DNA from: Candidatus Binatia bacterium
GTDB lineage: Bacteria > Desulfobacterota > Binatia > Bin18
Assembly (NCBI GenBank): GCA_963666315.2
Contig: CAXXHG010000017.1
Coordinates: forward strand, 1 to 55,114
DNA length: 55,114 nucleotides
Reading direction: 5' to 3'
Shown here: piece by piece, positions 47,929-52,069 of the stretch
Layout of the letters: each line of letters opens with the position of its first letter
How positions within the stretch are numbered: position 1 is the first letter of the stretch
Notes under the pieces: model-generated
Databases searched by the model: none
Told to the model about the DNA's origin: nothing
The model's input: the letters and a program-made list of their open reading frames with translations, nothing else
Made by a program: the position numbers and the translations under genes

Positions 47929-49146
47929 TTAAGACAGCACTTCAGTGTCCTTAAGAACAGCAATTTCATCTGCCGAATATCCCAGTACCCGTTGCAGGAC
48001 ATCCTCGGTGTCTTGCCCCAGGCAAGGTGCAGGCCGACGCACCGCGCAAGGGGTGTCAGAGAACATCCAGGGCACGCCGGCATGTTGGCGTACGCCGACT
48101 TCCGGATGCGGAAGCTCAGCAAAAAACCCTCGGCCGCGCATATGTTGATCTTCAGCCAATTCCTTATTGGTTAATGCGGGAAAGGCGGCCACCCCGGCGG
48201 CCTGGAGTGTTGTTGTCACGGCTTCATCTGTACGCGTTTCCGTCCACGCCGTGACAGCGGCTTCTAACGCGTCTTCGTGCTGCTTGCGATCGGCAAGCGT
48301 GGCAAAACGTGTATCGTTTGCCAGCTCAGGTTTGCCCATGGCCGCACACAGCTTGTGCCACTCGATGTCATCCGCCACAACAATACTGATCCAGCGGTCG
48401 TCTCCTTGACATCGGAAGAGTCCATGCGGTGCCATATACAAATCTCGGTTGCCTATGCGCTGTGGTGGGCTGCCGTTCATTTCCTGGGCCATGATCCCTT
48501 CGCCCAGGACGGCTACCGAGGTCTCCCATTGTGACAAATCGATATACTGCCCTTCACCCGTACGGGCGCGATGCATCAGCGCAGCCAAAACAGCAAACGC
48601 ACCATGCAGGCCGCCGTTCGGGTCTCCGTATGAAAACCCGACATTCGTGGGCGGAAAGTTTGGAAATCCGGTCAGGGACGCCAAGCCACTCATCGGCACC
48701 TGCGCCGGGCCGTAAGACACATAAGGGCTTTCCGGTCCGGTTGCTCCGTAGCCGGACAGGGCGATCATAATAATGTCAGACTTGATGGCTTTGAGGGTTT
48801 CATACCCCAGCCCCATTTTGTCCATCACACCGGCCGCAAAGTTCTCAGCGACAATATCGCTTGTAGCGACCAGCTTTTTGGCGATTTCAAGACCTTCGGG
48901 TTTTTTGAGGTTGAGGCAAATAGAGTGCTTGCCTTGGTTGTATTGGTTGAAATAGCCACACCGATTTGGCCCCGCCTCGCCATCAGCGCTGGGCGGGATG
49001 CGCCGGGTTATACACAAGCGGCTTTCAGATTCAATCCGAATGACCTCCGCACCGAGATGGGCAAGCTGCACAGTACAAAACGGTCCAGCCCATACCCAGG
49101 TAAAATCCGCAACACGAACGCCTGATAACGGTAACTGCTCAGCCAT
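47929..49146 (-). CDS. CaiB/BaiF family III CoA-transferase
   Basis: PLSGVRVADF..WAGP, LGAEVIRIE, N.GK.SI.LNLK, ENF, GEGQYIDLS. Confidence 0.94.
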   Translation of the reverse strand: MAEQLPLSGVRVADFTWVWAGPFCTVQLAHLGAEVIRIESESRLCITRRIPPSADGEAGPNRCGYFNQYNQGKHSICLNLKKPEGLEIAKKLVATSDIVAENFAAGVMDKMGLGYETLKAIKSDIIMIALSGYGATGPESPYVSYGPAQVPMSGLASLTGFPNFPPTNVGFSYGDPNGGLHGAFAVLAALMHRARTGEGQYIDLSQWETSVAVLGEGIMAQEMNGSPPQRIGNRDLYMAPHGLFRCQGDDRWISIVVADDIEWHKLCAAMGKPELANDTRFATLADRKQHEDALEAAVTAWTETRTDEAVTTTLQAAGVAAFPALTNKELAEDQHMRGRGFFAELPHPEVGVRQHAGVPWMFSDTPCAVRRPAPCLGQDTEDVLQRVLGYSADEIAVLKDTEVLS

Positions 49147-49258
49147 AGTTCTTCACACCTTAATAATAAGCTTAGCGAACGAGGAATTGGGGGTCAGGGG
49201 TTAGGGTCTGGTATGCCTTTTCTTTTCCCATTCCCAACCCCTAGTCCCTCGCCCCAGA

Positions 49259-50494
49259 TTAGATCACATTCGTTTCTTTCAACGATTTCAATTCTTCTGG
49301 CGACAGCCCAAGCTGTCCGCCGTAGATCTCTTCATTATGTTGACCCAGACACGGCGCCGGACTCCGCAGGGCCCAGGGTGAGGCCGAGAACTTATACGGC
49401 GCGCCCGGATAGCGCAGTGAGCCGCCCTCGGGATGGGCAAGCTCAGCGAAAAATCCCCGCGCATTCAGATGTTCGGATTTTAAGAGATCACCCATGGTCG
49501 AGACCGGAGCAAACGGCACACGCCGTTTTTGCGCGCCGTGGTAAACCTCTTGAACCGATTTATCCTGTAGCCAGTCTTCAAGCAGTGGTTTCAGCGCGTC
49601 CCAGTTGACTGAGCGAGACACAAAATCTTGGAATAGTTCAGTGTCCGCCCACTCAGGGTTGCCCATCAACTCCACCGCGTTTTGCCACTGATGCTCCTCA
49701 ACTGCCAGAACATAAATATAGCCATCCCGGCACTGCAGGACATCTTGGGGGATCAAACGAAAGCCGAGCCGTGACGGCGTGGTGTGATCGTACGGCCACG
49801 CAATATAGTTGTTCTCCATAATGGCGACCAAACACTCTTGGACCGAGATATCGATGTGTTGGCCTTTGCCACTCCTCAGGCGTCCATACAGTGCTCCCAG
49901 AGAGGTCAGGCCTGCGTTGACGCCAGCCTGAAAGCCTGCCTGTTGACCAAACGCCTTGAGCGGCGGCAGGTCGGGGCGTCCACCCGCGCCACCGAGGAAA
50001 ACAAGCCCGCCCGCGCTCCACATGGTGAGATCATGCGCCGTATACTCTCGGCGCGGACCGGTTTGTCCAAATGGAGAAATCGACGTCATCACCAGACGTG
50101 GATTGTGGCGGGCAAGCGTTTCATACTCCAGCCCGAGAGCCGACATCTGGGTTGGATGATAATTGTGAACCAAAGCGTCGGCGTCTTGGACAAGCCGCTG
50201 CAACAGTTCTTGGCCTTTGGACGTTTCCAGATTGAGCGTAATCCCGCGTTTGTTTGTATTCAGGTAAAGAAACAGTCCGCTCTTCTCGGGATGGTGGGTA
50301 TTGCCGGGATACGGGCCGCGTTGGCGCGCGCTATCACCACCCGGTTCTTCGACCTTAATGACCTCAGCTCCTAGGTCGGCCATCAACTTGCCTGCATAGG
50401 CGGCGGCAACCATGTGGCCACATTCAATGACGCGAATACCCTGCAGAGGGCCTGGGGGTTGGGAGTTGGGGGTTGAGGAATTGTGTTCACTCAT
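49259..50494 (-). CDS. CaiB/BaiF family III CoA-transferase (second subunit-like paralog)
   Basis: PLQGIRVIE, ADLGAEVIKVE, LNTNKRGITLNL, GKGQHIDIS, APCLGQHN. Confidence 0.94.
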   Translation of the reverse strand: MSEHNSSTPNSQPPGPLQGIRVIECGHMVAAAYAGKLMADLGAEVIKVEEPGGDSARQRGPYPGNTHHPEKSGLFLYLNTNKRGITLNLETSKGQELLQRLVQDADALVHNYHPTQMSALGLEYETLARHNPRLVMTSISPFGQTGPRREYTAHDLTMWSAGGLVFLGGAGGRPDLPPLKAFGQQAGFQAGVNAGLTSLGALYGRLRSGKGQHIDISVQECLVAIMENNYIAWPYDHTTPSRLGFRLIPQDVLQCRDGYIYVLAVEEHQWQNAVELMGNPEWADTELFQDFVSRSVNWDALKPLLEDWLQDKSVQEVYHGAQKRRVPFAPVSTMGDLLKSEHLNARGFFAELAHPEGGSLRYPGAPYKFSASPWALRSPAPCLGQHNEEIYGGQLGLSPEELKSLKETNVI

Positions 50495-50540
50495 ACGTTA
50501 CCCTGTGTGTCTTGACGGAGATTCAAGCCTCATACCTCGC

Positions 50541-50861
50541 CTAATATCTGGTCATCTCGGGTTCGATCTCAATTGCCCAGACATCGATACCGCCGGCGAG
50601 ACTCAATACGTGTTCAAAGTCGCGTTGATGCAGGAAATGGGCGACTTGCAGGCTGCGCACGCCATGATGGCAATACACGACAATCTCGCTATCGGGATCG
50701 AGCTCGTGCAAACGGCTGGGAATGTCTCCCATCGGAATATGGACGGAATTGGGCAGCTGGACCAGCGCGACTTCCTCCGGCTCACGCACATCGAGCAGGA
50801 CACAGTCTGTTCCAACGTTCTGTTTTGTTTGTAATTCTTGGACGGTGATTTCAAACGACAT
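50541..50861 (-). CDS. Single-domain rhodanese (sulfurtransferase)
   Basis: LLDVREPEE, HIPMG, active loop YCHHGVRS, LAGGIDVW; AAGGA SD before ATG 50861. Confidence 0.9.
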   Translation of the reverse strand: MSFEITVQELQTKQNVGTDCVLLDVREPEEVALVQLPNSVHIPMGDIPSRLHELDPDSEIVVYCHHGVRSLQVAHFLHQRDFEHVLSLAGGIDVWAIEIEPEMTRY

Positions 50862-50868
50862 AGTGTCC

Positions 50869-51402
50869 TTATTCAATGCTACACACCGGGCGTTCCACGT
50901 CTAAAACCATGAGCAAGCGACCCAGGCCAATGTATTGCCCGATCATCATGCCGAGTTCGAGGACTTCCGCATCTGAGAACTCCGCCCGGAGTTCCCGAAA
51001 AAACTCATCATCGATTTCGTGATGGCTGAGCGCCATTTTCTCGGCAAAACGTAAGGCCAATTTTTCTTGTGAGGTAAACGCGTCGCTATCTTGATAGGCA
51101 TCAATCTGGGCTATCTTTTCTTCCGTCAGACCGTCATGCATCACCGATGCAAAGCGCGCCTTCTTTCAGGTGAAGCAATTGTTGAGCTGGGCGATCCGCA
51201 ACCGCGCGAGTTCTTTTATCGCCGGCTTCACAACCCCGCCCTCATGTGTCGTATAGTAGAATTTGAAATACGACTGGAACATGTCCGCCCGATGCCCAAG
51301 CACCTGGAAGACGGTTCCACGCCCGGTTTCCTCGGCCTTTTTGACCCTTTCAGAAAATTCCGGTGTGAGTTTTTCTTTTGGCAGCACCCTGAGACGTGAC
51401 AT
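50869..51402 (-). CDS. AhpD/carboxymuconolactone-decarboxylase-like selenoprotein (177 aa, CxxU, Sec79 at TGA 51166-51168)
   Basis: ORFs 51166..51471 and 50869..51144 are in frame via 7 sense codons; readthrough gives KELARLRIAQLNNC-F-T-U-KKARFAS; hairpin 14 nt after TGA. Confidence 0.85.
51137..51151 (-). promoter_or_regulatory. Candidate bacterial SECIS upper stem-loop for the AhpD-like gene
   Basis: mRNA UGCAUC-GGU-GAUGCA perfect 6-bp stem; G-first loop begins 20 nt after UGA. Confidence 0.65.
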
Positions 51403-51516
51403 GCCCAACCCCTTTCTGTTTTGCGGAAGACGAGTCGGTCTGATACTAGACAACCGACTCTTGTCGGGCAAGGGTCTGAACTATACATATCTAAGGGCAT
51501 ATCAAAGGAGGCAGAA

Positions 51517-51897
51517 ATGGCAGACTCGGAACGGTATAAAAAAGGCGCAGCAAAGATGAAAGAACTCTTCGGTGTCGAACCCCGACCAGGGATGATGCAT
51601 GAAGATTTTCTGAATATTACCGTCGAAAATCTCTTCGGGGATGTGTGGGGACGAGACGGCTTAGCCATTCAAGAACGCTCTATGATCACCATGGCGGCCC
51701 TGACCGTACTGGGCCGAGATCCGGAGCTTAAGGTCCACATCCGTGGCGCACTGAATATTGGTATTAGTCGCGAGAAGATCAATGAGATTATGATCCATCT
51801 CGCCCACTATGGTGGCTGGCCCGTTGGCGTGAACGGCCTGCGGCTGGCTAAAGACGTTTTTGACAGTATTGATAAGAAGAAGGCCAAAAGCGAGTAA
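51517..51897 (+). CDS. Carboxymuconolactone decarboxylase family protein (PcaC-like)
   Basis: LFGDVWGRDGL...RSMIT.AAL, ELKVHIRGALNIG, HLAHYGGWP; AAGGAGG SD. Confidence 0.9.
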   Translation: MADSERYKKGAAKMKELFGVEPRPGMMHEDFLNITVENLFGDVWGRDGLAIQERSMITMAALTVLGRDPELKVHIRGALNIGISREKINEIMIHLAHYGGWPVGVNGLRLAKDVFDSIDKKKAKSE

Positions 51898-51917
51898 AAC
51901 GAGGAGCCAGACATTTA

Positions 51918-52069
51918 CAGGTCAAGTTTGGTCGCCTCCCATATCGTCAAAAAAGTAAGCAGGCCAAGCAGCTGTACGCCAAAGGACTGAGTAAATCGGA
52001 GATTGCCCGACGAGTGGGCATTGGGCGAATTCGGTACGGCGGATTTTGGAGACCGCTCCCTCAGCCTGA
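51918..52069 (+). pseudogene. Remnant C-terminal HTH of a serine resolvase/invertase
   Basis: Frameshifted fragments VKFGR..., KSKQAKQLYAKGLSKSEIARRVGIGR, SVRRILE; no catalytic domain upstream. Confidence 0.6.

Follow-up and report, generated by a model that had tools for sequence, protein, structure and literature searches.

AhpD-like selenoproteins with a CxxU motif were reported in 2005 from the Sargasso Sea, where 27 sequences were assigned to COG2128 (PMC1088965; Zhang, Fomenko & Gladyshev). The GOS survey of 2008 listed 299 sequences as "AhpD-like 1" and 70 as "AhpD-like 2" and ranked the family as the fourth most numerous among selenoproteins (PMC2398784; Zhang & Gladyshev). According to the available text of a 2026 review, the catalogued types include an "AhpD-like protein, TIGR01926, CxxU" and three other CxxU families related to AhpD/CMD, and the exact functions of such selenoproteins are unknown (PMC13188914). 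The AhpD-like family also serves as the browsing example of BSepDB (PMC13326102).

The locus described here lies in a stretch of 55,114 nucleotides from a Candidatus Binatia bacterium (contig CAXXHG010000017.1), and this whole stretch is referred to below as the window. We are highly confident that positions 51402 to 50869 of the minus strand encode a genuine AhpD-like (CMD-fold) selenoprotein, and that they do so as a single gene. Coordinates of the gene, its main features, its neighbors, and two paralogs from the same genome are collected in Table 1.

Table 1. Features of the predicted selenoprotein locus and of two related genes elsewhere in the genome
Feature	Position	Strand	Details
AhpD-like/CMD-fold selenoprotein gene (predicted)	50869..51402	minus	177 codons + TAA stop; ATG at 51402, TAA at 50871..50869
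UGA codon 79, predicted to be read as selenocysteine; second position of the C76-x-x-U79 redox motif	51166..51168	minus	TGA in 101 and TGC in 7 of 109 loci
TGC codon, Cys76, first residue of the CxxU motif	51175..51177	minus	Cys in 107/109 loci
Purine-rich AAAGGGG, 6 nt upstream of the ATG	51409..51415	minus	Read from the sequence
Predicted bacterial SECIS hairpin, UGCAUC-GGU-GAUGCA	51137..51151	minus	6-bp stem, 51151..51146 pairing with 51142..51137; GGU loop, 51145..51143
Single-domain rhodanese gene	50541..50861	minus	Pfam PF00581, 65.1 bits; active-site loop C-H-H-G-V-R-S
Second CMD-family gene, PcaC-like, no Sec	51517..51897	plus	Pfam PF02627, 65.6 bits; TIGR02425, 83 bits, below cut-off
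AhpD-like Sec paralog, C-N-L-U, same hairpin type	G000:C39:154830-155363 (L132)		
AhpD-like Sec paralog, C-P-F-U	G000:C41:19106-19570 (L133)		

The gene is a single reading frame from ATG to TAA, and its only internal TGA is codon 79, which stands in the context LRIAQLNNC-F-T-U-KKAR. Translation with table 11 cuts this frame in two, producing one ORF of 101 aa (51166..51471, opened by an upstream TTG) and another of 91 aa (50869..51144). The initial annotation had read these two short ORFs as one frame with a single TGA at the second Cys position of the AhpD motif, and its coordinates and details proved correct throughout. The ATG at 51402, which was taken as the start, agrees with the M-[SA]-R-[LI] N termini of homologs, and the AAAGGGG stretch ahead of it is probably the ribosome-binding site.

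A protein database search returned 36 matches, of which about 20 are C-terminal halves of about 100 aa that start right after the TGA position, the typical product of gene callers on split selenoprotein genes; annotation pipelines thus do break up this gene in the way that had been predicted. The six closest full-length homologs in the database (46 to 55% identity) have Cys at position 79 (CxxC). To place the codon in a wider set of relatives, we searched six-frame translations of the window's own genome and of those of 60 relatives; 46 of these 61 genomes contained matches at an E value of ≤1e-10. Most species of the window's genus had four to six matches per genome, nearly every one of them with exactly one TGA. 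Codon 79 was TGA in 29 of 30 loci from the relatives' genomes, the remaining locus being a fragment in which the codon could not be mapped. A scan of species-representative genomes found 161 relatives, and among the best 80 of these 161, which were kept, codon 79 was TGA in 73 and TGC in 7. The closest locus in this set of 80 (93% identity) comes from a MAG labeled Candidatus Binatia and has TGA too. Other TGA forms among the best 80 occur in Rokuibacteriota, in many MAGs of Gammaproteobacteria/Pseudomonadales, and in Desulfobacterales, and the Cys forms occur in Novosphingobium/Sphingomonadaceae, Baekduia, one Deltaproteobacteria MAG, and one Spirochaetales MAG. When the relatives' loci and the best 80 species-representative loci were pooled into 109 loci (with the window's own locus included and the duplicate L052 dropped), 101 had U at position 79 and 7 had C, and in one locus the position could not be mapped. 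The homologs, for which either Cys or a conserved TGA had been anticipated at this position, therefore show both, and never Trp or a variable residue.

Two loci from close relatives depart from this pattern elsewhere in the gene. One (L029; G024:C84) has Tyr for Cys76 and one mismatch in the hairpin stem and runs off the end of its contig, and the other (L047; G020:C73) is a broken copy, interrupted by one TAG and one TGA.

The letters of the codon itself were compared with contigs assembled from other sequencing runs. The region 51137..51168 is covered by contigs from four runs in four studies (95 to 99% alike), and no difference is listed for either the TGA or the hairpin, although one of the four may be the window's own source, so that perhaps fewer than four are independent, and one is labeled "metatranscriptomic" by a guess and may be DNA. 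At 51166..51168, where TGC, TGT, or TGG had been proposed as readings that would speak against selenocysteine, these contigs show no other letter. The nearest difference to the TGA is at 51178, occurs in one run, and is synonymous. Sequencing runs labeled as RNA contained only small shares of the sampled sequence words. Elsewhere in the window, TGA is an ordinary stop that ends 7 of the 31 long ORFs, which indicates that the standard genetic code is used.

Bacterial SECIS elements have been described as stem-loops that follow closely on the UGA and whose small apical loop includes a G (PMC1088965), and the hairpin of the window fits this description. A perfect UGCAUC-GGU-GAUGCA hairpin with its loop 20 nt downstream of the UGA had been noticed at the outset and was located at 51151..51137; its stem begins 14 nt after the UGA, and the 20 nt are counted from the UGA to the first base of the loop. 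By itself, the hairpin does not stand out from chance: the 66-nt fold of 51175..51110 has a predicted energy of -14.3 kcal/mol (z = -0.06 relative to dinucleotide shuffles). An Rfam scan of 50500..51600 with E values of up to 10 gave three chance-level matches to snoRNA/ctRNA families and none to a SECIS family.

The comparison across homologs gave a different picture. We aligned, without gaps, 87 distinct 48-nt stretches from the TGA onward, leaving out the seven TGC sequences. Columns 16 to 23 and 27 to 34, which form the helix, contained standard pairs in 89.7% of cells, compared with 64.8% in shuffles, and all eight of the helix pairs varied on both sides among these 87 sequences. The covariation score was 0.744 versus 0.310 in shuffled alignments (0 of 500 reached 0.744), a control that overstates the significance because the loci are mutually related, and the score fell to 0.175 or less when the partner strand was slid by one to three columns. 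All six core pairs are complete in 69 of 73 TGA loci and five of six are present in the other 4, a degree of conservation that is due in part to protein constraint, as the hairpin lies inside coding sequence. G is the first loop base in every one of the 73 TGA loci. In contrast, the seven TGC loci each retain just one to five of the six core pairs, and none is intact. In one relative (L024), the hairpin is displaced 2 nt upstream. What exceeds chance is the conservation and covariation of TGA and hairpin over the homologs, and not the hairpin taken by itself.

One of the Cys forms, from a Baekduia MAG (L083), retains five of six hairpin pairs, with a stem that is nearly that of a Sec form (L089). 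The likeness between these two sequences suggests a recent Sec-to-Cys conversion.

The genome contains the complete machinery for selenocysteine, and all four of selA, selB, selC, and selD, whose presence had been named as a check, were recovered above curated cut-offs: selA at 592.8 bits, selB at 378.3 bits, selD at 308.3 bits, and the tRNA-Sec gene (selC) at 66.8 bits, with the anticodon tca according to ARAGORN. The tRNA-Sec gene is encoded on the strand opposite to selA, 57 nt past the end of that gene (G000:C43:402598-404077; L001/L014). The selD gene (G000:C28:39602-40519; L009 1390-3663, minus strand) belongs to a 757-aa frame without an internal stop, in which a pyridine-nucleotide-disulfide oxidoreductase domain is fused at the N terminus; this Ndh-SelD fusion type is mentioned in the GOS paper (PMC2398784). 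A second match to RF01852 (C24:117587-117673) scored 50.2 bits, just above the gathering score.

These observations bear on several other explanations of the TGA. It might be a true stop, in which case the locus would be a pseudogene or a pair of small genes made up of an N-terminal part of 78 aa and the C-terminal 91-aa ORF starting from GTG at 51144. Table 11 does yield two ORFs, C-terminal halves of about 100 aa have been deposited as proteins by gene callers, and decaying copies exist in some relatives, as in L047 with its TAG and TGA breaks and L029 with Tyr for Cys76. Set against this, 101 of the 109 loci, from lineages far apart, have TGA at this very codon, both halves are conserved in frame, and Cys is the sole alternative at the position. 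An intact covarying hairpin is a feature of the TGA forms alone, and the predicted structure forms one domain that spans the TGA. We therefore regard termination at codon 79 as very unlikely, for a pseudogene as for two small genes.

Low-level readthrough of UGA occurs in bacteria, and codon 79 might be read through without selenium, either by near-cognate insertion of Trp or Cys or under a reassigned code, although nothing specific to this locus points that way. Such readthrough would have to be reconciled with homologs that switch only between TGA and TGC, with a complete Sec system in the genome, and with a SECIS-type hairpin whose loop begins with G and which stands at a fixed distance in 73 of 73 TGA loci, and we give it scarcely any weight. 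Reassignment of TGA to Trp or Gly was considered separately and rejected, since TGA serves as the stop of 7 of the window's 31 long ORFs and Cys is the only alternative at codon 79. Least probable is a sequencing or assembly error in place of TGC or TGT, a reading for which no support was found and that is opposed by the agreement of the contigs over 51137..51168 and by the TGA in the 93%-identical relative. The homologs, the hairpin, the Sec machinery, the stop usage, and the contigs combined exclude both a sequencing error and a reassigned code. The initial claim of an intact gene for a 177-aa selenoenzyme accordingly stands, with codon 79 (TGA in 101 and TGC in 7 of 109 loci), the covarying hairpin, and the Sec machinery all in agreement.

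The readthrough protein matches the Pfam CMD family (PF02627) over residues 40 to 121 at 32.5 bits (gathering score, 23). Two NCBIfam models align with it below their cut-offs: NF053654, "YciW-related (seleno)protein," at 69.1 bits over residues 35 to 154 (cut-off, 310), and TIGR01926, "peroxidase-related enzyme," at 43.4 bits (cut-off, 81.8), with residues 2 to 164 on positions 1 to 168 of a 178-position profile. Both models also match all 29 aligned members of the clade below threshold (best E values, 2.9e-24 and 5.9e-16, respectively), and NF053654 is the top-scoring NCBIfam model for each of the 29.

An AlphaFold2 model built on the alignment of these 29 members has a mean pLDDT of 92.6 and a pTM of 0.87 and consists of a single all-helical domain that continues across the TGA position, with C76 directly before a short helix (residues 77 to 81). 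In Foldseek searches with this model (probability, 1.00), TMq values were 0.77 to 0.79 for 2prr, 6k40, and 2oyo and 0.76 to 0.79 over the "peroxidase-related" group of 2prr, 6k40, 2oyo, 2pfx, and 3c1l; PA0269, Atu0492, and the debrominase Bmp8 were matched as well, and a profile search of the PDB recovered PA0269 at an E value of 6.7e-22. The protein is thus predicted to have the all-helical AhpD/CMD fold.

Within this fold, E64 corresponds in the alignments to the Glu of PA0269, Atu0492, and 2oyo, and C76 and U79 correspond to the two Cys of their CxxC motif. Glu64 lies 12 residues before C76, which is the spacing of the AhpD Glu. Conservation over the 109 loci is nearly complete at E64 (108 loci), R67 (108), C76 (107, with one Tyr), and E113 (107), and the redox position 79 is U or C in 108. 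The canonical His four residues after the second Cys is absent, and Arg83 stands there instead, aligned with the His of CxxCxxxH in PA0269, Atu0492, and 2oyo. The substitution, which had been pointed out as KKAR in place of the canonical AhpD His, holds for the clade: Arg occupies position 83 in 106 of the 109 loci, all seven Cys forms among them, and of the other three loci two have Val and one could not be mapped. Of the 101 Sec forms, 74 have a Cys in their last 12 residues (C174 here, in P-V-C-S-I-E, window about 50872-50890), whereas no such Cys occurs in the 7 Cys forms; in the AlphaFold2 model, the residue falls in the low-confidence tail. This C-terminal Cys could be a third redox residue, and its distribution could also merely mirror relatedness.

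The genome holds at least two further AhpD-like paralogs that bear Sec (Table 1), and in each a single in-frame TGA takes the second motif position and is followed by a hairpin. A Cys-form relative is also present (G000:C26:6036-6413; L134); it carries the canonical C-P-Y-C-I-G-H, but its frame is interrupted by a TAG where the A-L-R-F-A-E block has its conserved Arg, and it may be a pseudogene or contain an assembly error.

The rhodanese gene next to the selenoprotein gene starts 7 nt past its stop codon, with AAGGA ahead of it, and the two genes are probably cotranscribed. The PcaC-like CMD gene is divergent, at 114 bp from the start of the selenoprotein gene, and the third neighbor considered in the window encodes a CoA-transferase. 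Linkage to these three genes is found only in the closest relatives. When the three neighbors were compared by tblastn with 110 fetched loci (L022-L131), the rhodanese was found only in L022 (the window's own locus), in L023/L052 (one contig fetched twice), and in L047, and it was therefore rejected as a family-wide partner. Ten neighbors in five distant loci, which include SDR, nitroreductase, AMP-binding, luciferase-like, thiolase, HAD, and MoCo-binding proteins and one gene without an assignment, revealed no common partner. A scan of 49000..52000 for promoters and terminators gave counts at or below shuffle expectation.

In Mycobacterium tuberculosis AhpD, Cys133 is the attacking nucleophile and Cys130 the resolving residue, and His137 and Glu118 also have roles in the active site. 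By analogy with that enzyme, U79 and C76 would take the parts of Cys133 and Cys130. We propose that SelB carrying Sec-tRNA(Sec) would bind the hairpin 14 nt downstream of UGA79, so that selenocysteine would be inserted there in place of termination. The product would be a thiol/selenol oxidoreductase of 177 residues with a C76-x-x-U79 center, in which U79 replaces the second Cys of the AhpD CxxC. Its selenolate might attack an oxidized substrate, which could be a peroxiredoxin sulfenate or disulfide, another disulfide, a persulfide, or a peroxide; C76 would then resolve the adduct to a selenenylsulfide that a cellular reductant would reduce. Arg83, at the site of the AhpD His, presumably stabilizes the selenolate. 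The insertion of selenium, the catalytic cycle, and the substrate are all inferences here.

A role as a reductase of AhpC or another peroxiredoxin would follow from analogy only, because there is no peroxiredoxin (ahpC) gene among the 3 window neighbors or the 10 neighbors scanned in five other loci. The Arg-for-His clade might instead be a distinct family of selenoenzymes that are not AhpC reductases, with a selenolate held by Arg83, with small-molecule or persulfide substrates, and with several Sec paralogs per genome in the Binatia genus. We consider this rather unlikely as a whole. As candidate reactions, such a family could catalyze reductive dehalogenation, which its structural relative Bmp8 carries out, or the transfer of sulfur or selenium together with the adjacent rhodanese.

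For annotation, the immediate consequence of an AhpD-like selenoprotein at this locus is that gene callers routinely split the window gene, as they do at least two Sec-bearing paralogs from its genome and roughly a hundred homologs from other genomes, and that no NCBIfam model catches the window clade at its cut-off. The locus also adds to the evidence of wide selenium use in this Binatia lineage. With E64, C76, U79, and R83, it offers a well-conserved test case for the role of AhpD-like selenoproteins.

How does the window gene compare with the systems already described? As far as the text available from the surveys goes, it shares with their AhpD-like family a CxxU motif with Sec in second place, homology to AhpD/CMD, a small SECIS element with G in the apical loop, and the existence of Cys homologs, and many of its homologs are in marine gammaproteobacterial MAGs, the type of community sampled in 2005 and 2008. 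It differs in its relation to TIGR01926, the model of the surveys' family, with which it aligns over nearly its full length and yet scores only 43.4 bits, below the cut-off of 81.8. The available text of the survey papers (PMC1088965 and PMC2398784) contains no biochemistry and no discussion of a replacement of His by Arg. NF053654 (GroundWater_YciW) resembles the window clade in being a family with Sec and Cys forms, and it is a sister family of which the window gene is not a member.

The solved structures of AhpD-like proteins, namely, PA0269 (2ijc, 2o4d, and 7xw1), Atu0492 (2gmy), 2oyo, 2prr, 2pfx, 3c1l, Deinococcus radiodurans AhpD (6k40), and Bmp8 (6ohi), are all-helical and match the predicted model with TMq values of 0.62 to 0.79. 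They have CxxC at the same place and a conserved Glu 12 residues upstream, they are all Cys forms, and their identity to the window protein is 13 to 27%. In PA0269, Atu0492, and 2oyo, the second Cys is followed four residues later by His, for which the window clade has Arg. M. tuberculosis AhpD (1gu9 and 1lw1) belongs to the same superfamily and follows the same logic in its redox motif, but it is a weak structural match to the model (E about 1; TMq, 0.43 to 0.51), and its His is missing from the window protein. Overall, the window gene belongs to the catalogued CxxU AhpD-like kind and is no new kind of system, and its clade is distinguishable within that kind by Arg in place of His and by scores below the NCBIfam cut-offs.
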